Assembly: GCA_017455185.1 (NCBI GenBank)
Contig: JAFTBN010000062.1
Location: forward strand, 867 to 64,866
Source: Clostridia bacterium
Lineage (GTDB): Bacteria; Bacillota; Clostridia; Oscillospirales; CAG-272
Direction of reading: 5' to 3'
DNA: 64,000 bases
The notes beneath the pieces were generated by a model. That model saw only the letters and a program-made list of their open reading frames with translations, was not told the DNA's origin and searched no databases. Of the stretch, positions 1-13,774 are shown in pieces. A program made the translations under genes and the position numbers. How positions within the stretch are numbered: position 1 is the first letter of the stretch; every line of letters starts with the position of its first letter.

Positions 1-3000
1 TTTATGATGAAATATGTGCTTATAGTGCAACTGAAGCATCCAAGATTATGGATAATGGTCAGGGGATCATCTCTATAATAACCTCTGGGGCGCCGAAAAC
101 AGAGTCTACTGCTACCAACAGCCTTACATATGTGGCGAAAACAGCAAAAGGACAGACACTGACAAATGGCAACACAAGATATTACTATAATCTGAATGCA
201 GTAGATGATAGCGCTGGTGATTTGTCAACCGATCCCGCAAAGCTTATGCGTTGGGGGCTTAATCAGTATGCCTGCGCGAATATTAAAGATTATTTTCCCG
301 ATCCTTATAATGGAAATATAAGCGGAACAAACTTTTCTATGAAAAACTATAGTTGGTATCCGGTTAGTATCAATTCTGCAGTTTCAGTTTCCGGTACATT
401 TGAATTCTTCAACAATGAGTTTGAAAACTGTGAGGCATTAAAAACCAATACAAAACTTAGTTCTTTAGAAAGTACTCAGCATTATATGATGCAAAACGGA
501 TTGTTCTATGATGTTTCATCGAACGTTACGATTGGGCACATAGTTTTAAAGGGAAATATCGGAGCAGTAGGTGAATCGGGTACTGGTGCGCTCATATACG
601 GAAAAATCAGTGGTTCAGAAACAAATCCTGTAGTGATTTCAAGTGTAAAGGGAAGTATCTCTTTGGATGGGATTCATGTGCATAATTTTAGTACAAAGTC
701 TTCATCCTATGCTCCGCTTTTGATAAACTCTTCAACAGGGTATGTAACGCTTGATATCTATCATGTATCCAATACTAATAATTCGACTTATGCTGTTCCT
801 GCAGGAAAGGAAGTTGCAACTAGTTTAATAGGGAAATTGGGATCTGATTCAGCAAAGTTTTTGAATGTATCTTTTTCGGATATTAAACTTGATGGAAGAA
901 AGCAAACAGGAAGGTGTACTGGTAGTGGGGAAATTGGAAATGTAACCAGTAGTTCAAATACAAGTATTTATTATACAAGTAAATCCATTTTTTCAAGAGC
1001 AACACTTCTTGAATCTTTAATGTATGATTCTGATTCTTCTGGAGTATATAATTTTACATATAACGAAGATTGGGGTGCAGGAACGCCTAGAAAAGTAACT
1101 TATGGTAAAGAATTAGGTTATGTGAATGCTACTTCTGGAAGTACAAATGCAAATAATAATCAGTTCCCAGGGTTGGAATTGCAGTATTCTGGATCAGCCA
1201 ATTATGTTGCATATAAGCTAAAAGGTTCTAATCCTTATACATCTCAAAATAACACTATTTCTAATGAGTTTTTGAAGTATTTTCGCCCATATGTTGCTGA
1301 TGTGGATAAATCCCAAAAAAAGTTTCAGCTTTCGGTAAACCATAGAGCGATTACGCTTTCCGGTTGTGGTACTTATAATGATCCATATGTAATAGAGGAA
1401 GGTACACAGCTTGAAGGTGTATCCAGAATAATACGTGGTAATGCCAATAATGGTGATACGCTTAATTTACCGACCTCTGATGGTTCAACAGTTACTGTTG
1501 GAGCAACCTGGTGTCATGATAAAACTACTCCGGATCATGTTAGCTTTACATATAATGGTACTGATTTTGCATCTGCATCTGGGACGAGGAAGGAGGTTTT
1601 AGATGTTCAAAAGCATCTTGCCGGAGCGTACTATATTATTCAACCAAAGAATGATGCTTCCAGTATAACCGTGAGCAATAATACCGATTTTAACGGTCTT
1701 GGTTCAACCTCAGCTGAGACAATGTTTAGGGGTGTTATTGATGGCAATGATAAAACAATAATCAATCAAACAGACTATCCTCTTATTGCAACAAGTAACG
1801 GAAGCGTTGTAAAGGATTTGACTGTTACGATTGATAAAACCACCATAGCAAAAACAGGAAATCAGAGCACTTTTCCTACTGCCACTGCTTATGGCGCAAT
1901 CATCGGTCAAATACATGGTGGCGATAATATCATTGATAAGGTTACGGTAAACTTTGGGTCTTCTGTAATTAGTCTTAATGGAGATAAGGCTCAGCTTATT
2001 CCTACTGGCGGATATGTCGGTGTGGTTCTTAACGGTGGTTTGATATTTAGAAATATGAACTCCGTTGCAGCAACATCAAAACTTGCTGCTGCTAATGTTA
2101 CAACAAATCAAACAGCTATAGTTGTGACTGATATGACTGCTACCACAAGTACACATGAAACCACTAATGATCTTTGGCTTTATGTTAATCCTTATGTAGG
2201 AAGAGTTATCAACGGATATGCTGTAAATATTTCTTCAGCTTATCATGACAGGGACTCTGCTCAGATGCTTCAGAACGGAACAAAGCATTATTCTATCACG
2301 GATATTAATCCAAGTGAGGGCAATTTTACAGTATCCGGTTCTACAATTACTATTCCCAATGCACAGTCATTCTTTATTATATCTTTGATTGTAAACAGCG
2401 GAATGGGAATGAAGTCGACGGCTGATGCAACATCTGTAACCAGTCCTTTGGGATATTACAATGGTTATTGTACAACGAGGCACGCTCTGTATAATCAGAT
2501 AGGTGAAGCCACCAGTACCGACTACACTGATCTGGCTTCAAAGGATATATTTTGGCAGACTGCAACAGATTCTCAAAAGCAAGCTGATACACCTTATATT
2601 GTCGAAAACTATACTCCAGGTTCAGATTCTGATAACTATGTTGCCAAGACTCTGGGCGGTAGTAGCTCTGCTTGGTCGATAAACCTGAAATCAAGTGTGA
2701 CTTACAATCTTCCTGATGGTTATAAGGGCATTGGAAATATTTTCTACAATAATGTGGCCTTGAGATTAAATGTTGCCGGATTTGACGGAAAAGGCTGTAC
2801 TATTGATCAGAATACAAGATTTGTGAGTTATGATGATGGTTTTGATAATGCACAATATTTACCTGTTGCCGGAGATGGTGATACAAGTTATACTGCCCCA
2901 GATTTAGGATTAGGCTTGTTTAATCGCCAAGAAGGTAGAGACAATGTCGAAGTAACTTACAAGGATTTTATTCTTACTGGAAAAGTTAGAAGCGATGTGG

Positions 3001-6000
3001 TGGATAAAGGTACGGGAAATCATGTCTCGTATACATTTACTGATAAGAATAAGGGTATAGATAAATCATATGTTTTATCGACAGGCATGCTTTTTGGAAC
3101 TTTATATAGTAGAACTAAAATTCAAAATGTTACCCTAAGAAACATAGATGTTAGAGGTGCAAAATATTCTGGTGGTTTTATTGGTTCAGGACCAAATAGT
3201 AACGGTCGAAATATTACAATTGAACAGCAATCTTCTTATACAGAATCATCCTCAGGTATAGTGGTTCATGGAGTCACTGGTGCAGGAGGCATGATTGGTA
3301 GATGGCAGGCTGGTAATCCCAAAATCAGTTATAATAATCATATTTTCAATATTACTGAGATTTATAGTGATGCTGAGTCTGACATAGCAAATTTTAAATA
3401 TGGAGTAGGCGGAATTATTGGAGTTTGCCGTGCTGGTTTAGGAGATCCTGCTCCAGATGGAACAATAGAATACATAAAAGTTGGTGATCCAGAACAACTA
3501 ACGGCTTCTGTTGTTGGATGTAGTGTTCCCTCAAAAGGTATTAATGCTGGCGGTTTAATGGGAACATTAAATAGGTGTTCTCCTAAAATACAGCATTGCT
3601 CAGTTAATAATATTACGGTTATCTCTAATGGAGCAGATACATATGTTGGAGGATTAGTTGGTTTCACAACCACAAAGTGTCAGGTTCAAGTTGATGATAC
3701 TGTTATTTATTCAAACACAAATGCTAAGGCTGTTATTAAAGGAAATGGTTTTTGCGGTGGAGTTTTAGGAGTTTCCTCAAAGGATGATGGTACTCTTAAA
3801 TTTACAATATTGAATAGTACTCTTAGTGGTTATGCTATTAGCGGAAAAATTGTAGGGGGTATTGTTGGAAAAAGAGATACTGAACGAAAAAGCAATGTCC
3901 CATGGGATATGCGTATAGAAAACTTTGAAATCGATACTTGCTCTGTAACAGGCACAGGCACTGGAAATGTTGCAGGAGGGTTAGTAGGACAATTGCTTAC
4001 TCCTATCAAAGGCTATAATATCCACGCAAAGGATCTGACGGTAACTGGAGCAACTTCCGGTTATGTTGTCGGAACAATGGCTGATGATGATAAAGGCCTT
4101 ATCAAACTTGTTGCTTTTTCACGTCAGGAAACTCGTGATAATGAAACTATGCTTGCTACGATAGTCGGCTCCTATTTTACTTATGAGTACGGCGATGGAG
4201 GATATATTGTTTTTTCTGACTATTTGGGAACAAAAACTAATACTACTGTGTCTGCGATAAATGCTACCAACAATATAAATGATTTTAAATCACCTTATGT
4301 TAATATTAATCCTTCAGTAACATTTGAAGACTCTGTAGTTCTTACTGGTGACGGCGTAAGCACATTGACAAATGTGGCAGGAGGTAAAGCTTCAGCAGTA
4401 ATCAAGAAAATAAATGATGACGTACAAGATGATAAACCTAACTACATTAAAGCAATTGCTGGATATGATCCTACAGATACATCTAAATTCAAAGCAGATA
4501 TGCAGAAGCTGTATCATTCATACATTACCAGACAGTCCACTTTTGCAAATGAGGCAGAAGATAAACTAGAAGGAGTATCGGGGTATGATTTTCCTGTTCT
4601 GATACTTGATATTTCAAATGCAACACTGGCTAGAAATTATATAAACAACTATATACATCTATTGACAAATACTCCATCAAGTGGTGTATTCAGTAATTTT
4701 GCTAATGATTCAACTGGTGTATATCGTGTTGTTTTGACCAGGTATCAATATGATTCAACTGAAGGAGAACTTGTAGAGCAAACAACGGGATATGACAGCT
4801 TTATAAAAGAGGATGGAAAATTCTATATGGATGGTTCACATACTGATACAGAATGTGAAAATGCACAGTTCACACTTATGGACGTTCAGTTTTTTGATCC
4901 TTCTGATACAACTAAGGTTGCATACCATCTGTACATCCCAGTGTACTGTCGAAAGCTTTTGGAATACGATTTCAGAATCAATCTGGAGTCAGGAACGAAT
5001 TATGACCGCACAGCATCTGTATCAAGTATTCGACCGCTGAATGAAGAAAATGTGCTGATTGAGAATATTGGTACCCCTGTAACGATGGAGTTTGTTTATA
5101 CTTACAAACGTAATCTGCAGGAGTGGAAGAATGCATTAGAAGGTGGAGATTCTCTGATTGCTCCTTATTCTCCGCGTATGTTAAAATTTCAGAATAATAC
5201 ATCTACAGCTGCGGGCGTCACACCTAACAGCTTCCCGTCGGGAACTGCGATGGTATTAGTTGATGTAAATAGAAAAGGAAAAGCATATTATCTTAATTCT
5301 CTTACAAATACTGCTTTTTCTGCGCTGGATTCAAGCAAGAATTTTTATTTGAATTTGAATCAGTTTACAGCTACGGATGAAGCGGGGTTTGTTCCCGTTA
5401 CTTTCTGTGATTTGATGATTGTTACTGCGGAAGAAGATCCGGAAGGTAAATTTGTTTCTAAAACTCAAGCTGGAGGAACGGGTACTGTTAAAATAAATAG
5501 CGGTTCAACGGTTGTTGGACAGGAATTAAGACTGTATGATGATTCTACGGATGCAGGTAATGGATACACCAGGTATAATGTTAATCTGGCTTTTCCCGAG
5601 GGAGTTACTGAATTGTCGGAAAGATATTTCCTGACGATTTATACACCCGAGGATCAAAGTCAGAACAAGGTATATCATTATGTTATTGGATCGAAGGCGT
5701 CATTAAATGAAGCAAGCGGTCAATTCCCTACAAAAGTCACATCGGTTAATCAGATTTCCAATTTATACATTGGAGATATATATTCCAATCATGTGTATAT
5801 TGATGGTCTTTCTGATCCTCAAATGATTACGGAGGAAAGTAATAGTATTTCAGCGGATTTGCGGGCTACTATTGAATTGACTGGCGCAGGAAAAGACAAC
5901 GTAGGAGCGGTTCTGGACAAGGCAAGTTTGTATCAAAGTTTTTTGGTTAAACTGAATAAGTTTAATAATAATGCAACTCCTGCAAAGAGTGAAATCGGTA

Positions 6001-6980
6001 TTCTGGCTGAGAATATTCAGGTCTCTCCTTCGAACGGAAAAATAGGGTATGAAGGTGGCTTGGAGAATGCGACATTCACATGGAGTGGAAACTCAAACTA
6101 TATTGAAGTAAAATCCAACCAGAACCTGCGAGATTATTTAATTAGCAATACGGCAAAAAACAGGGCGACAGTGATTCAAATAAAGGTTACCATGACGTTT
6201 GACGGAAGTGAGGGAAGTACGGATATTCCAGACCAGTTCTATGGTCAACCTGAGGATAGCGAGCGAGGAACATTGGTTTATGCTTATTCAAATATTTCAT
6301 CGGTAAATGCGCAGACAGCGTACAGTAATGCTACCGCTAAGGATGAAACCAGTACTAAGATTTATTACACCTCAGAAGATCAAGGTGCTGCGTTGACTTA
6401 TGATGCAGTTACAGTTCCAGATCAAGGCGAACTGCAGCAATTAGGCATTAACAGACGGGATGCGAATGAACCATCTGTTTCATTGATAAAAACTCAAGGT
6501 AATTACGGAATAGCTAAATGTAAAACAGCAGCATCTGAATGTCAGTATGTAAAATGCAAGCTCACGCTTGCTCATAAACAAGATGATGCTACTTATACCA
6601 CAACCCCGCTTGTTTTATCGGATTATATATCCAGTATCAAGTTTGGTGATACCACAGTGACGCCAACAGCAGGAGAAACAGATTGTTATTTTGTCTTTGA
6701 TAAAGATGATTTAACCTTAGAAAATGATATCTATTGTATTCCAATTGATATAACGGTTATTTCTGGAGATGCTTTTGAGAACGGAACAGATACTGCCGGA
6801 AGTAAGAGAGTATACTCCAATTACAAAATCACATTGGAAGTATGTATGCAGGAAGATGATCTTGTCGCTTCAGAGGCAAAGCCTGGAACAACCGATTCGG
6901 ATTATTTGATTTATACACACGCAAAGATATATACGGATCGAATAACTCCGACAGAAGCCGGTGGTGGGGAAGAACCGTAA
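1..6980 (+). CDS. Giant repeat-containing putative surface/secreted protein (GLUG-like, beta-solenoid type modules); 5'-partial, continues upstream of the window
   Basis: The frame is open from base 3 to the TAA at 6978-6980 (bases 3-47 translate as YDEICAYSATEASKI with no stop). No Shine-Dalgarno precedes the first in-window ATG at 48. A 6.9-kb stop-free frame in AT-rich DNA is very unlikely by chance. Two modules begin with G(C/S)GTxxDPYxI and FxGxxDGxxxxI-type strings (aa ~450-570 and ~910). They are followed by repeated GG(F/I/L/M/V)(I/L/M/V)G strings (SGGFIGSG, AGGMIGR, VGGIIGV, AGGLMGT, VGGLVGF, CGGVLGV, VGGIVGK, AGGLVGQ), as in GLUG-motif proteins. The C-terminus has no LPXTG, TM segment, SLH or dockerin-like string. 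Confidence 0.85.
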   Translation, partial: YDEICAYSATEASKIMDNGQGIISIITSGAPKTESTATNSLTYVAKTAKGQTLTNGNTRYYYNLNAVDDSAGDLSTDPAKLMRWGLNQYACANIKDYFPDPYNGNISGTNFSMKNYSWYPVSINSAVSVSGTFEFFNNEFENCEALKTNTKLSSLESTQHYMMQNGLFYDVSSNVTIGHIVLKGNIGAVGESGTGALIYGKISGSETNPVVISSVKGSISLDGIHVHNFSTKSSSYAPLLINSSTGYVTLDIYHVSNTNNSTYAVPAGKEVATSLIGKLGSDSAKFLNVSFSDIKLDGRKQTGRCTGSGEIGNVTSSSNTSIYYTSKSIFSRATLLESLMYDSDSSGVYNFTYNEDWGAGTPRKVTYGKELGYVNATSGSTNANNNQFPGLELQYSGSANYVAYKLKGSNPYTSQNNTISNEFLKYFRPYVADVDKSQKKFQLSVNHRAITLSGCGTYNDPYVIEEGTQLEGVSRIIRGNANNGDTLNLPTSDGSTVTVGATWCHDKTTPDHVSFTYNGTDFASASGTRKEVLDVQKHLAGAYYIIQPKNDASSITVSNNTDFNGLGSTSAETMFRGVIDGNDKTIINQTDYPLIATSNGSVVKDLTVTIDKTTIAKTGNQSTFPTATAYGAIIGQIHGGDNIIDKVTVNFGSSVISLNGDKAQLIPTGGYVGVVLNGGLIFRNMNSVAATSKLAAANVTTNQTAIVVTDMTATTSTHETTNDLWLYVNPYVGRVINGYAVNISSAYHDRDSAQMLQNGTKHYSITDINPSEGNFTVSGSTITIPNAQSFFIISLIVNSGMGMKSTADATSVTSPLGYYNGYCTTRHALYNQIGEATSTDYTDLASKDIFWQTATDSQKQADTPYIVENYTPGSDSDNYVAKTLGGSSSAWSINLKSSVTYNLPDGYKGIGNIFYNNVALRLNVAGFDGKGCTIDQNTRFVSYDDGFDNAQYLPVAGDGDTSYTAPDLGLGLFNRQEGRDNVEVTYKDFILTGKVRSDVVDKGTGNHVSYTFTDKNKGIDKSYVLSTGMLFGTLYSRTKIQNVTLRNIDVRGAKYSGGFIGSGPNSNGRNITIEQQSSYTESSSGIVVHGVTGAGGMIGRWQAGNPKISYNNHIFNITEIYSDAESDIANFKYGVGGIIGVCRAGLGDPAPDGTIEYIKVGDPEQLTASVVGCSVPSKGINAGGLMGTLNRCSPKIQHCSVNNITVISNGADTYVGGLVGFTTTKCQVQVDDTVIYSNTNAKAVIKGNGFCGGVLGVSSKDDGTLKFTILNSTLSGYAISGKIVGGIVGKRDTERKSNVPWDMRIENFEIDTCSVTGTGTGNVAGGLVGQLLTPIKGYNIHAKDLTVTGATSGYVVGTMADDDKGLIKLVAFSRQETRDNETMLATIVGSYFTYEYGDGGYIVFSDYLGTKTNTTVSAINATNNINDFKSPYVNINPSVTFEDSVVLTGDGVSTLTNVAGGKASAVIKKINDDVQDDKPNYIKAIAGYDPTDTSKFKADMQKLYHSYITRQSTFANEAEDKLEGVSGYDFPVLILDISNATLARNYINNYIHLLTNTPSSGVFSNFANDSTGVYRVVLTRYQYDSTEGELVEQTTGYDSFIKEDGKFYMDGSHTDTECENAQFTLMDVQFFDPSDTTKVAYHLYIPVYCRKLLEYDFRINLESGTNYDRTASVSSIRPLNEENVLIENIGTPVTMEFVYTYKRNLQEWKNALEGGDSLIAPYSPRMLKFQNNTSTAAGVTPNSFPSGTAMVLVDVNRKGKAYYLNSLTNTAFSALDSSKNFYLNLNQFTATDEAGFVPVTFCDLMIVTAEEDPEGKFVSKTQAGGTGTVKINSGSTVVGQELRLYDDSTDAGNGYTRYNVNLAFPEGVTELSERYFLTIYTPEDQSQNKVYHYVIGSKASLNEASGQFPTKVTSVNQISNLYIGDIYSNHVYIDGLSDPQMITEESNSISADLRATIELTGAGKDNVGAVLDKASLYQSFLVKLNKFNNNATPAKSEIGILAENIQVSPSNGKIGYEGGLENATFTWSGNSNYIEVKSNQNLRDYLISNTAKNRATVIQIKVTMTFDGSEGSTDIPDQFYGQPEDSERGTLVYAYSNISSVNAQTAYSNATAKDETSTKIYYTSEDQGAALTYDAVTVPDQGELQQLGINRRDANEPSVSLIKTQGNYGIAKCKTAASECQYVKCKLTLAHKQDDATYTTTPLVLSDYISSIKFGDTTVTPTAGETDCYFVFDKDDLTLENDIYCIPIDITVISGDAFENGTDTAGSKRVYSNYKITLEVCMQEDDLVASEAKPGTTDSDYLIYTHAKIYTDRITPTEAGGGEEP

Positions 6981-7028
6981 ACACACCCTAGTTTGATCAC
7001 TAAAAAACAAAATCATTATTATCAACAA

Positions 7029-7091
7029 TAACACCCCAGGGGAAGAGAAGAATAATTTTTTCTTAGACCCACCGGGGTGTTATTTATTTTT
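7029..7091 (+). terminator. Hairpin plus T-run terminator downstream of the giant ORF
   Basis: TAACACCCC (7029-7037) pairs with GGGGTGTTA (7074-7082). There is a smaller inner AAGAA/TTCTT hairpin, and the structure is followed by TTTATTTTT. Confidence 0.6.
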
Positions 7092-7286
7092 AGCGGGGTG
7101 CTTTAGGGATGTGAAGTAAGCGTTAAATAATAAGGCGTCTAGCCAAGCAAGATAAAATAGAGTTGTAAACATGGAATGGTCTACAGCTCTATTTTTTTTG
7201 AGGGAAACCATATGCTTGAGGAGCTCGTGAAAAGCCGGTGCAAATAGTCTTTCAGACCGGACGGTAAAGACATAATTCCCGGACAT
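7080..7286 (-). other. Orphan 68-aa ORF of intermediate GC with no visible RBS; possibly a gene remnant (weak resemblance to the C-terminal end of IS4/IS5-type DDE transposases)
   Basis: The ORF is MSGNYVFTVRSERLFAPAFHELLKHMVSLKKNRAVDHSMFTTLFYLAWL... Its ERLF...K...(N)AV...LAWL spacing loosely recalls transposase C-termini. There is no SD upstream of the ATG. It sits exactly at the compositional junction. Confidence 0.2.
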
Positions 7287-7291
7287 ATTCG

Positions 7292-7368
7292 GTCACATAT
7301 CACGCGTAAATTCCCAAAGTAAATTCCACTGTGGAATTTACTTTGGGAATTTACTGTCACATATCACG
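7292..7368. repeat. 49-bp perfect palindrome flanked by 13-bp direct repeats
   Basis: GTCACATATCACG occurs at 7292-7304 and again at 7356-7368. Between the copies, GTAAATTCCCAAAGTAAATTCCAC (7306-7329) and its exact reverse complement (7331-7354) are separated by a single T. Each arm contains two copies of GTAAATTCC. Confidence 0.9.
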
Positions 7369-7391
7369 GACAGATAATGCCCGCAAAAGAA

Positions 7392-7420
7392 TTGACAAAA
7401 GCGGCCTGTTTTGCTAAAAT
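7392..7420 (+). promoter_or_regulatory. Sigma-70/SigA-type promoter upstream of fumC
   Basis: TTGACA (7392-7397), a 17-nt spacer, and TAAAAT (7415-7420) preceded by TGc. A second extended -10 (TGcTATAAT, -10 at 7537-7542) lies closer to fumC. Confidence 0.6.
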
Positions 7421-7569
7421 GGAATGTAATTTTCAAGTGGGGATGCCCGCCGTCCCGGATTGCCGCGGGTTGACCGGACGGGTGAGGCTCAGCCGGGCTT
7501 TTCGGAAAGGGGCTATCTCTTTTTCCCGTTCCGTGCTATAATTCTAAGAAACAACAGCAGAGGTCCGCC

Positions 7570-8985
7570 ATGGAATACAGAATCGAAAAGGATACGATGG
7601 GCGAGGTGAAAGTGCCTGCGGATTGCCTTTGGGGCGCACAGACGCAGAGAAGCCTTGAGCATTTCAGAATCGGGACCGAAAAGATCCCCGCGCCGGTTAT
7701 CCGGGCGTTCGCCTATCTGAAGAAAGCGGCCGCCATGGCAAACGCCGAACTGGTTCCGCAGAAAATGACCCCGCAGAAACGGGAACTGCTTGAAACCGTT
7801 TGCGATGAAATCCTGGAAGGGAAACTGGACGGCGCGTTTCCTTTGTCGGTCTGGCAGACCGGCAGCGGAACCCAATCCAACATGAATGTCAACGAGGTCA
7901 TCTCGCACCGTGCGGCCGCGCTGAATCCCGGACTGCCCCTGCACCCGAACGACGACGTGAATCTGTCGCAATCTTCGAACGATACATTTCCTTCCGCGAT
8001 GTACATAGCCGCGGTGACCGAAACACAGGGGCGCCTTATTCCTGCCCTGGATACTCTTCTTGCCACGCTGGACCGGCTGAGCCGGGAGAACGACGACGTG
8101 GTCAAAGGGGGAAGAACCCATCTGCAGGATGCGGTTCCGATCCGCTTTTCCCAGGAAGTTGCCGGATGGGCCGGACTGTTGCGGGTCGACCGGGAACAGA
8201 TTCTGTCCTCGCAAAAGGGATTGTACCGTCTGGCTCTGGGCGGGACGGCGGTCGGGACCGGTCTGAATGCCCCCGAGGGGTTTGCTGCCCTTGCCGCCCG
8301 GAAGGTGGCCGTGCTGACCGGATATCCGTTTGAGACGAACCCCAACAAATTCCAGGCTTTGACCGGCAAGAGTGAACTGGTCTTCGCTCATGGAGCTCTG
8401 AAGGGCCTGGCGGCGGATCTGATGAAAATCGCCAACGACGTCCGCTGGCTGGCTTCCGGACCGAGAAACGGTTTGGGTGAGATCCGGATTCCCGAAAACG
8501 AACCGGGTTCTTCCATTATGCCCGGCAAGGTGAACCCGACCCAATGCGAAGCGGTGACCATGGTTGCCGCCCAGGTTATGGGAAATGACGCGACCGTCGG
8601 ATTCGCGGCGTCACAGGGTAATTTTGAGCTGAACGTGTTCATGCCCGTCCTGATATACAATTACCTGCAGTCGGTCCGCCTTCTGACGGATGCGATGACG
8701 TCGTTTGAGGGCAACTGCATCCGGGGGATTGTTCCCGACCGGGAGCGGATGAAGGAAAACCTGAACCGGTCTTTGATGCTGGTGACCTGCCTCAATCCGT
8801 ACATCGGATATGAAAAGGCGGCCAAGGTGGCGAAAACGGCTTACGCGCAGCAGATTACGCTCAGGGAAGCCTGCCTGAAACTCGGATACCTGAGCGGGGA
8901 AGAGTTTGACCGGGTGTTCCGCCCGGAGGATATGACGGGCGGCGCACTGCCGGATTCCGATCAACCGTCAAAAGAGAAGAAATGA
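7570..8985 (+). CDS. fumC: Class II fumarate hydratase
   Basis: 471 aa. N-terminus [27 protein letters not shown]. The signature [16 protein letters not shown] is the fumarase variant, not the aspartase variant. Confidence 0.9.
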
Positions 8986-11140: not shown

Positions 11141-13774
11141 ATGCAGTGGACATCCCTGAATGTATTGAGAGAGAAGTATTTATCCTTTTTTGAATCCAAA
11201 GGACATTTGCGCCTGCCGTCCTTTTCGCTGATTCCGGATCATGACAAGAGCCTTTTGCTCATCAATTCCGGTATGGCACCGATGAAGAAATTCTTCACAG
11301 GCGAAGTGGAACCGCCCCGCCGTCGCGTGACGACCTGCCAGAAGTGCATCCGTACGCCCGACCTGGAGCGAGTGGGCCATACGGCCCGTCACGGGACCTT
11401 CTTTGAAATGCTCGGCAATTTTTCTTTCGGAGATTATTTTAAGGAGGAAGCCATCACCTGGGCCTGGGAGTTCCTGACTCAGGTGCTTGAGATTCCCGAA
11501 GACCGTCTGTGGCCTTCCATCTATGAAAATGACGAGGAGGCTTTCGATCTGTGGACCAAGAAAATCGGGCTTCCCGCCGATCGCGTGACGCGTCTGGGCA
11601 AGGAGGACAATTTCTGGGAACACGGTTCCGGTCCCTGCGGCCCATGCTCGGAAATTTATTTCGACCGCGGTGAAAAATACGGATGCGGGAAACCGGATTG
11701 CCGTCCGGGATGCGACTGCGACCGGTATATGGAGATCTGGAACAACGTCTTTTCCCAGTTCAACAACGACGGAAAGGGGAACTATACCGAACTGTCGCAG
11801 AAGAACATCGACACCGGTATGGGTCTGGAGCGTCTGGCCTGCGTGATGCAGGGCGTGGACAACATGTTCGAGGTGGATACCATCCGCAACATCCTGGACA
11901 AGGTCTGCTCGATTTCGGGCAAGACATACGGGGCCGATCCGAACGGTGACATTTCCATCCGCGTCGTGACCGACCACATCCGTTCGGCCATGTTCATGAT
12001 TGCGGACGGCGTGACTCCTTCCAACGAGGGTCGCGGATATGTGCTTCGCCGCATTCTGCGCCGGGCCTGCCGTCACGGCAAACTGCTGGGCATCAACCGC
12101 CCGTTTCTGGTGGAACTGTGCGAGGTCGCCATCGGCGAGTCGCAGGGCGCTTATCCCGAACTGGACGAAAAGAGAAATTACATTGAAAAAGTCATCTCCC
12201 TGGAGGAGGAACGGTTTGACGCGACCATTGACGCCGGCCTTTCCATCCTGAGCAACCTGACCAAGGGCCTTTTGCAGAAGGGAAGCGATACGATTTCGGG
12301 CGAGGAGGCGTTCAAACTCTATGACACCTTCGGCTTCCCGCTGGATCTGACGCGTGAAATCGCGGCGGAGAACCACCTGAAGATCAACGAGGGGGACTTC
12401 TCGGCCCTGATGGAACAGCAGAAAGCCCGCGCCCGCGCCGCCCGGGGCAACATCAGCGGCTGGAGCGACACGACCAAGACCATGCTGTCCCATCTTCCCA
12501 AAACCGAGTTCACCGGATACAGCGAGTATCGCAGCGACGCCAAGGTTCTGGCCATCTTCTCGTCCAACGAGGCGGTGGAAACCGTAAGCGAGGGCGACTG
12601 CTCCGTCGTGCTTGACCGCACTCCGTTCTACGGCGAAGGAGGCGGACAGGTCGGGGATACCGGTACGATTTACACAGAGGGCGGAACCCTGCTGAATGTA
12701 ACGGACACAAAGAAGTCCGACGGAGTGTTCCTGCATTTCTGCACCGTGCTCAACGGCGTTCTTCACGTCGGCGATACGGTCAAGGCGGACATTACGGATA
12801 TGAGGCGCGATGCCATTCGTCGCAACCACTCGGCCTGCCATCTGCTTCAGGCGGCTTTGCGCGCCGTCCTCGGCACCCATGTGGCGCAGGCCGGTTCGTA
12901 CGTGGACGAGGAGCGCTGCCGGTTTGACTTTTCCCATTTCGCGGCGATGACGCCCGAGGAAATTGCCAAAGTGGAGCATCTGGTCAACCTGAATATCATG
13001 CTGGGCATTCCGGTTGTGACGACGGTCACCGACGTGGAAACCGCCCGCGCATCCGGCGCAATGGCGCTCTTTGACGAGAAGTACGGCAATGAGGTCCGCA
13101 TGGTGGAAATGGGAACCTTCTCCAAGGAACTGTGCGGAGGAACACACGTGGACAACACAGGCCGGATTGGTCTGTTCAAGATTGTTTCCGAGACATCCGT
13201 GGCTGCCGGCATCCGCCGTGTGGAAGCGGTTACCGGTTACAACGTGTTGCGGCTGCTCAATGAAAAGGAAGCGCTGATCGAAAAGACACGTCAGGAACTC
13301 AAGGTTCCGAACAGTTCGGATCTGCCTCATCGCGCGCATGCTCTTCAGGAGGAAATCGCGGAGCTGCATCATGAAGTGGAAACCCTGCAGGGCAAACTTG
13401 CTTCGGTGCAGAAGGACGCGCTCCTGGCCAAGGCGAAGACCGTGGGTTCGGTCCGGCTGCTGGCCGAACGGATGGAGTCCGGTATGGAAATCGCCCGTGC
13501 CATGGCCGATCAGCTTAAGGCCGAACAGCCCGATCTGGTCGCGGTAATGGCCGTCACGGAAGGTGAAAAACTGAACTTTTTGGTCGTGGCGGGTGCCGAT
13601 GCGGTTGCAAAAGGCGCGCACGCAGGAAAACTGGTCAGCGCAGTGGCCCAGTTGACCGGGGGACGCGGAGGCGGACGTCCGGACAACGCAATGGCGGGCG
13701 GACGGGACCTGAGTCAGGTGAACGCCGCGCTTGAAGCGTCCGCGGCTTTACTGGAGTCGCAGTTGAAACATTGA
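11141..13774 (+). CDS. alaS: Alanine--tRNA ligase
   Basis: The typical N-terminus is MQWTSLNVLREKYLSFFESKGH. Also present are FTGEVEPP, the WNNVFSQF motif, the editing-domain HSACHLLQ, and a C-terminal DHHA1-like end. I prefer the ATG at 11141 (after AAGGTGA) to 11105. Confidence 0.95.
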   Translation: MQWTSLNVLREKYLSFFESKGHLRLPSFSLIPDHDKSLLLINSGMAPMKKFFTGEVEPPRRRVTTCQKCIRTPDLERVGHTARHGTFFEMLGNFSFGDYFKEEAITWAWEFLTQVLEIPEDRLWPSIYENDEEAFDLWTKKIGLPADRVTRLGKEDNFWEHGSGPCGPCSEIYFDRGEKYGCGKPDCRPGCDCDRYMEIWNNVFSQFNNDGKGNYTELSQKNIDTGMGLERLACVMQGVDNMFEVDTIRNILDKVCSISGKTYGADPNGDISIRVVTDHIRSAMFMIADGVTPSNEGRGYVLRRILRRACRHGKLLGINRPFLVELCEVAIGESQGAYPELDEKRNYIEKVISLEEERFDATIDAGLSILSNLTKGLLQKGSDTISGEEAFKLYDTFGFPLDLTREIAAENHLKINEGDFSALMEQQKARARAARGNISGWSDTTKTMLSHLPKTEFTGYSEYRSDAKVLAIFSSNEAVETVSEGDCSVVLDRTPFYGEGGGQVGDTGTIYTEGGTLLNVTDTKKSDGVFLHFCTVLNGVLHVGDTVKADITDMRRDAIRRNHSACHLLQAALRAVLGTHVAQAGSYVDEERCRFDFSHFAAMTPEEIAKVEHLVNLNIMLGIPVVTTVTDVETARASGAMALFDEKYGNEVRMVEMGTFSKELCGGTHVDNTGRIGLFKIVSETSVAAGIRRVEAVTGYNVLRLLNEKEALIEKTRQELKVPNSSDLPHRAHALQEEIAELHHEVETLQGKLASVQKDALLAKAKTVGSVRLLAERMESGMEIARAMADQLKAEQPDLVAVMAVTEGEKLNFLVVAGADAVAKGAHAGKLVSAVAQLTGGRGGGRPDNAMAGGRDLSQVNAALEASAALLESQLKH

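Follow-up and report, generated by a model that had tools for sequence, protein, structure and literature searches.

A 49-bp palindrome upstream of fumC is probably the minimal remnant of an IS30-family insertion sequence flanked by a 13-bp target-site duplication

We assign a probability of about nine in ten to the reading that positions 7305-7355 (minus strand) of the window are a 51-bp non-autonomous IS30-family derivative that is flanked by a 13-bp target-site duplication. The window is the whole 64,000-nucleotide stretch of DNA that was analysed (G000:C34:867-64866), and G000 is a 2.1-Mb Clostridia bacterium assembly with 54% GC, 83 contigs and a completeness of 91.5%. A tiny insertion with a target-site duplication, either a MITE or a solo-IR scar, had been the leading idea of the first-pass annotation, and this idea gains support from the arms of the palindrome, which are IS30-family ends, and from the repeats of 12-14 bp that flank 10 other members of the family.

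The palindrome and its direct repeats

The 13-mer GTCACATATCACG is present in two exact copies at 7292-7304 and 7356-7368, and between both copies lies a perfect 24+1+24 palindrome at 7306-7354, both as originally described. The two arms (7306-7329 and 7331-7354, 24 nt each) are 100% complementary with T7330 between them, and a single base, C7305 on one side and T7355 on the other, separates each direct repeat from the palindrome. The four GTAAATTCC units that had been reported were also recovered, two per arm, at 7306 and 7319 on the plus strand and at 7333 and 7346 on the minus strand, with the units of one arm 13 nt apart. When the window was shuffled, GTAAATTCC occurred on average 0.55 times and a count of 4 was reached in 1 of 100 shuffles. 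The 24-mer arm showed no further match in the window at ≤3 mismatches (0 expected), and across the whole 2.1-Mb assembly no exact copy of the 13-mer exists beyond these two. By simple arithmetic, 13 nt would repeat exactly at mirror positions by chance with odds of ~4^-13, and the combination of direct repeats and palindrome is far beyond chance. Read as an IS30-family derivative, the locus would be composed as follows, with two neighbouring features included:

7116..7238, plus strand: truncated end of a different repeated element, 123 bp, with 96% identity to the ~140-bp starts of contigs C55, C31 and C18
7292..7304, no strand assigned: putative target-site duplication copy on the right-end side, GTCACATATCACG, exact 13-nt repeat of 7356-7368
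7305, minus strand: putative outermost base of the right end (G on the minus strand; G at 27/34 right ends)
7306..7329, minus strand: right terminal inverted repeat (IRR), reading GTGGAATTTACTTTGGGAATTTAC on the minus strand, with two GGAATTTAC units
7330, minus strand: central base (A on the minus strand), matching the full-length left end ...TTCCAC A GTGGAATTT... in L031, L037, L074 and L078
7331..7354, minus strand: left terminal inverted repeat (IRL), reading GTAAATTCCCAAAGTAAATTCCAC on the minus strand
7355, minus strand: putative outermost base of the left end (A on the minus strand; A, outward T, precedes 41/52 left ends)
7356..7368, no strand assigned: putative target-site duplication copy on the left-end side, exact repeat of 7292-7304
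7392..7420, plus strand: best sigma-70-like promoter candidate for fumC, TTGACA-17-TAAAAT with TG, 11/12

On the minus strand the window element thus has the order A-IRL-A-IRR-G, and its 49-bp palindrome is without an ORF. The IRR is identical to the right end of full-length elements of the L031 type and 1 nt off that of the L037, L074 and L078 type.

As a single strand the palindrome can pair with itself over 22 base pairs (-24.3 kcal/mol, z = -8.3), a hairpin such as a structural RNA would form, or a terminator serving a small RNA or the giant gene upstream. We hold this explanation to be highly improbable, since every perfect palindrome folds in this way, no T-run follows the palindrome, the giant ORF already has its own hairpin at 7027-7084, and the Rfam search returned only generic sub-threshold hairpin matches (30 bits vs a gathering score of 95).

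A family of IS30-type elements and its target-site duplication

Uniqueness in the genome, which the first-pass annotation had named as an outcome that would speak against a mobility scar, was not observed, as the assembly holds 2 full copies and 1 half copy. The second, identical 49-bp palindrome is located at G000:C37:178-226. The half copy is a single arm at C5:40233-40256 and belongs to an isolated right-end remnant, 89 bp long, of the IS30-type parent (C5:40169-40257), corresponding to the last 89 bp of the element; the remnant sits at a GC-rich/AT-rich transition, and the adjoining AT-rich gene fragment carries a HATPase_c_4 domain. An AAA/DUF4143-like gene to the left of the C5 arm was considered as cargo of the element and rejected, because the match to the element comprises these last 89 bp only. 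The start of an IS256-like transposase beside the C37 palindrome was likewise rejected as the owner of the arms, because that element stops at C37:140 (...GGCCACTATC), 37 bp from the palindrome, a boundary shown by a second copy at the end of C35.

Outside this genome, 60 relatives were searched, of which G058 (another family) has a palindrome whose outer unit is GTGAATTCC instead of GTAAATTCC in each arm and G031 (another genus) has a single arm. An order-wide scan found the identical 49-mer in 4 of 401 genomes, and the centre of the palindrome was found at only 4 loci in the metagenome scan. The arm 21-mer GTGGAATTTACTTTGGGAATT was present in >120 contig stretches, nearly all of them from rumen or gut Clostridia MAGs, when one genome per species was scanned. 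Most of these matches lie within ~140 nt of a contig end, with ...GGGAATT(T/C)AC toward unique DNA, and this clustering at contig ends in one orientation indicates that the arm is a repeat terminus on which assemblies break. At L001 / L016 (G031:C54), a truncated IS200-like TnpA start (MTDSNSLSHTKWNCKYH...) was seen directly beside an IS30-type right-end remnant at ~1340-1525. The patch is nested mobile-element debris, and a link of the L001 arm to IS200/IS605 was rejected as coincidental after full-length IS30-type copies had turned up.

These full-length copies define the parent element. At four loci (L037, L074, L078 and L031) two arms are found 1.46-1.49 kb apart with their GT(G/A)AATTCC ends outward, and a single 396-aa ORF, interrupted in L031, lies between them. 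The full-length elements measure 1488-1491 bp, and their terminal inverted repeats match at 24/24 positions. The 396-aa protein scored 88.2 bits against the NCBIfam model NF033563 (IS30 family transposase; cut-off 80) over residues 89-352 and matched Pfam HTH_38 (PF13936) over residues 7-47 with an E-value of 2.6e-14. Its DDE core has D-37 residues-E, as counted by eye in TDNGGEF...HVE, and a Cys-rich stretch (CPKLLKAPFVCNGCPKRNHSNC) follows the first HTH. All plasmid genes recovered by tblastn carry the annotation IS30 family transposase and share 24-35% identity with this protein. In full-length elements the left terminus has the sequence A-GT(G/A)AATTCCCAAAGTAAATTCCAC-A-GTGGAATTT(A/G)... 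and the right terminus ...CTTTCC(T/A)ACT-GTGGAATTTACTTTGGGAATT(T/C)AC-G, and further GTAAATTCC copies are subterminal. Given that inward-facing arms occur ~1.49 kb apart around an IS30-family transposase gene, the palindrome corresponds to the left end, 1 nt and the right end of this element without the interior. The family comprises two subfamilies whose DNA is 68% identical, yet the 24-nt ends are nearly unchanged between them, which suggests that the ends are transposase binding sites. The GTAAATTCC units are the repeated motifs of these ends and presumably sites of transposase binding. Rumen and gut Clostridia carry the parent element widely.

Flanking direct repeats of 12-14 bp, with sequences that differ from copy to copy, were found at 11 elements of the family (49-2007 bp), the window copy included. 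In 8 of the 11 the repeat measures 13 bp exactly and a single base separates it from the end, namely in the window copy, the 49-bp copies at L015 and L099, the 61-bp copies at L095 and L126, the 243-bp copy at L120, and the 497-bp and 2007-bp elements at L025. The repeat can be read as 13 or 14 bp at L104 (61 bp) and is offset or imperfect at L049 (61 bp) and L102 (83 bp). At L025 (3799-5805) the 497-bp deletion derivative is nested in the 2007-bp copy and each has its own 13-bp duplication, which indicates that one member of the family can insert into another. Immediately outside the 24-nt repeat, the base depends on which end it borders, at the frequencies listed above, and the remaining flank is merely AT-rich; we therefore counted this base as part of the element, which gives 51 bp for the element and 13 bp for the duplication in the window.

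Similar duplications were found at three distant relatives with 31-35% amino acid identity, where they are 13-14 bp long; two of these relatives are on complete plasmids. One is a 1672-bp IS30-like element at G000:C54:11713-13384 with the duplication AAATAGGGGGGTT (13 bp), another is flanked by TAGCTTATTTAACT on the Butyrivibrio fibrisolvens plasmid pNP243, and the third by GAAAATTAGAAAT on a Clostridium beijerinckii plasmid. The G000:C54 element is apparently intact, with a transposase of 426 aa (31% amino acid identity to that of the palindrome's parent) and perfect inverted repeats of 25 bp (GCTGAAGTGTAAAGTTAACTTCCAC). Since repeats of differing sequence accompany both the family elements and the three distant relatives, the 13-mer in the window is best read as a target-site duplication. 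About half of the 49-bp copies elsewhere have no duplication whatever, and neither do four simple full-length copies in MAG contigs, in which chimeric assembly of repeats is possibly the cause. A snap-back model for the duplication-free copies, in which the right flank is the reverse complement of the left, was rejected because the flanks do not fit.

Insertion at the fumC locus and origin of the short form

In the proposed course of events, an IS30-type transposase would have inserted the element, or its full-length parent, into the site ...CATATTCG / GTCACATATCACG / GACAGATAATG..., duplicating the 13 bp in the middle. The empty allele before insertion would be 64 bp shorter and would contain ...CATATTCGGTCACATATCACGGACAG... 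and ...CATATTCGGTCACATATCACGGACAGATAATG.... The best fumC promoter begins 23 bp past the right duplication copy; the insertion would have occurred 23 bp ahead of its -35 and displaced the DNA further upstream by 64 bp. No empty site was found in the same-genus genome G002, in which fumC is only 67% identical and the upstream region is different; the one further assembly that encodes an identical FumC, at 99.93% identity, has this insertion as well, and the right flank had 0 matches in the metagenome scan.

The short form would have arisen by loss of the transposase gene and the whole interior, leaving the 24-bp IRL, one central base and the 24-bp IRR. This loss may have occurred by deletion between 10-nt direct repeats, with one copy of GTGGAATTTA just inside the left end and the other formed by the innermost bases of the right repeat; the full-length left ends (IRL-A-GTGGAATTT...) fit such a route in both the central base and the microhomology. 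Short forms of 60, 61, 83, 91, 243 and 497 bp were found in other genomes, and at the junctions that were checked, those of the 60- and 61-bp forms, the reiterated end motif likewise supplies direct repeats of 10-11 nt. As to the order of events, we put insertion of a full-length element followed by shrinkage in place at a little better than even odds, and mobilisation of the 49-bp unit in trans at a little below even. IS30-type elements transpose via abutted ends on a circle or dimer, and a double-stranded circle of 51 bp is sterically unlikely, which slightly favours insertion at full length with deletion in place. The cognate full-length element and its transposase were absent from the 91.5%-complete assembly, in which only the 89-bp right-end remnant in C5 was found, and the best tblastn match in G000 was the 31%-identical IS30-like gene with different ends. 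The window copy is thus probably immobile now, given the lack of a cognate transposase in an assembly whose incompleteness leaves this absence short of proof.

The gene downstream, fumC (7570-8985), matches Lyase_1 and FumaraseC_C, and the first-pass annotation had raised the possibility of a four-site operator. On such an account the palindrome would be an operator or activator array that regulates fumC, with the direct repeats as extra binding sites. Its location ahead of the best fumC promoter (38-86 bp before the -35), its perfect dyad symmetry and the 13-bp spacing of its units are in keeping with this role. We nevertheless judge an operator to be very improbable, since the same 49-mer is found upstream of an unrelated gene in C37 and in unrelated genomes (the 4 of 401 in the order), nothing alike is present upstream of fumC in same-genus G002, and the arms are the ends of an insertion sequence. 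Three further observations concern the DNA in front of fumC. At 7350-7378 (plus strand) the element tip TTTACT and the flanking GATAAT form, with a spacing of 17 nt, a weak promoter-like site (9/12) directed toward fumC, a predicted and possible hybrid promoter created by the insertion. A GC-rich leader of ~150 nt (7421-7569, plus strand) separates the best promoter from the fumC start codon and had no Rfam match, and a second extended -10-like sequence, TGCTATAAT, occurs at about 7535-7543.

Upstream, the palindrome lies at the junction of AT-rich and GC-rich DNA and about 300 bp after a foreign ORF, as the first-pass annotation had stated: GC content rises from 0.385 (6801-7200) through 0.47 (7201-7600) to 0.58 (7601-8000), and the ORF stops at 6980 with the palindrome 326 bp on. 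This giant ORF (48-6980, plus strand) encodes 2310 aa at ~38% GC, is 2573 aa long in a sister assembly, and gave no Pfam match at E ≤ 0.001. The suggestion that the palindrome marks the island boundary gained no mechanistic support, because, as the duplication shows, the left and right flanks formed one continuous stretch until the element inserted; it accordingly neither brought nor delimits the AT-rich segment. The same continuity weighs on the reading of the palindrome as an att-like recombination site at the edge of the AT-rich island, with a recombinase acting on the four GTAAATTCC units. That reading draws on the position at a GC transition, a setting that the C5 half copy shares. However, this half copy is simply the right end of the element, a DDE transposase and not an integrase is encoded between the arms of the full-length copies, and the flanking 13-mers vary by copy, as a duplication does and unlike an att core. 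Moreover, neither an integrase nor a matching end of the island came to light, no second copy is present within contig C34 at the other end of the AT-rich segment, where one had been suggested, and the other copies are in unrelated contexts. We consequently give an att-like site hardly any credence.

With the palindrome taken as an IS30-family remnant, its presence near the junction is most simply due to a preference of the family for AT-rich intergenic DNA, and a better candidate for the rearrangement between AT-rich and core DNA, by inference, is the breakpoint at 7238/7239. This breakpoint falls inside the ORF of the other repeated element, whose truncated end at 7116-7238 holds the ORF start (ATGCTTGAGGAGCTCGTGAAAAGCCGG) and is separate from the palindromic element. 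The contigs C55, C31 and C18 depart from the fragment after ...AACGCTTAC; each starts with the terminus of this repeat, GTAAGCGTTAAATAATAAGG..., with an RBS and the ORF start MLEELVKSR..., and the body of the repeat is not in the assembly. A 68-aa minus-strand ORF (7080-7286) overlaps the fragment and is probably spurious. In addition, a 15-mer, GGTAAAGACATAATT, occurs in tandem ...ATTATGTC... units at 7263-7277 and at G000:C54:~13470-13530, only near these two IS30-type insertions apart from one match with 1 mismatch, and it may be another small repeat or operator.

Related systems and meaning

The parent element resembles the IS30 family (type IS30, E. coli) in encoding a single protein, with HTH_38 at its N-terminus and a DDE core, that scores above the NCBIfam cut-off, and in its length of ~1.5 kb, its terminal inverted repeats of 24-25 bp and its AT-rich targets. 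Classical IS30-family elements make target-site duplications of 2-3 bp, in contrast to the 13 bp (12-14) seen here; the transposase is, in addition, only ~24-35% identical to plasmid IS30 proteins and has the Cys-rich stretch after its first HTH. Unusually long duplications are shared with the IS30-type element IS1630 of Mycoplasma fermentans, for which duplicated junctions of 16, 23, 25 and 26 bp are reported at 4 of 7 copies and none at the others (PMC3317919; the original paper is cited there and in PMC7648426). Those of IS1630 vary in length and are described there as duplicated inverted repeats, whereas the duplication of the present family is near-fixed at 13 bp and its targets are not clearly palindromic. 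The window element is comparable to bacterial MITEs in being short and non-coding, in carrying the terminal repeats of an autonomous element, in having several copies per genome and across genomes, and in its flanking duplication, which is as long as that made by the parent: 13 bp in the window, compared with 13-14 bp for the 2007-bp and 497-bp L025 elements and for other derivatives. It differs from MITEs in that its 49-51 bp are near the shortest length possible and consist of two ends only; it is a candidate mobile unit that may have arisen in place by deletion. A search of the literature found no specific report of IS30-derived MITEs or of 13-bp duplications.

A separate group of copies is formed by eight loci at which the 49-bp palindrome is flanked by A...T (L003 in G058, C37 in this genome, L019/L132, L042, L050, L072, L121 and L133). 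All are of the 49-bp form and none has a duplication; a mirror class flanked by C...G was not seen among the copies compared. It is conceivable, if on balance unlikely, that the IS30 subgroup with the Cys-rich insert and GTAAATTCC-type ends is an undescribed clade with a fixed stagger of 13-14 bp that leaves two kinds of 49-bp relic. One kind would be a left and a right end with a duplication, as in the window, and the other may be a scar of two left ends, flanked by A...T and without a duplication. Such A...T scars may form by deletion between two inverted copies at a 19-bp near-palindrome that only the left end has, AAATTCCAC-N-GTGGAATTT. If true, the A...T scars would be footprints of lost DNA segments and not of insertions.

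Judged from its sequence, the palindrome is an ordinary relic of mobile DNA, a minimal IS30-family remnant. A perfect palindrome flanked by direct repeats is prone to slipped-strand excision, and for this reason the region upstream of fumC, with its 49-bp palindrome and 13-bp repeats, may differ between strains. The 13-14-bp duplication in an IS30-like subgroup is of modest interest, chiefly to transposon specialists, and has no bearing on a long-standing open question. For annotation, the sequence and its copies should be treated as insertion-sequence remnants and not as regulatory palindromes or att sites of islands, and the near-fixed duplication of 13-14 bp provides a simple rule for delimiting such elements in fragmented rumen and gut MAGs.
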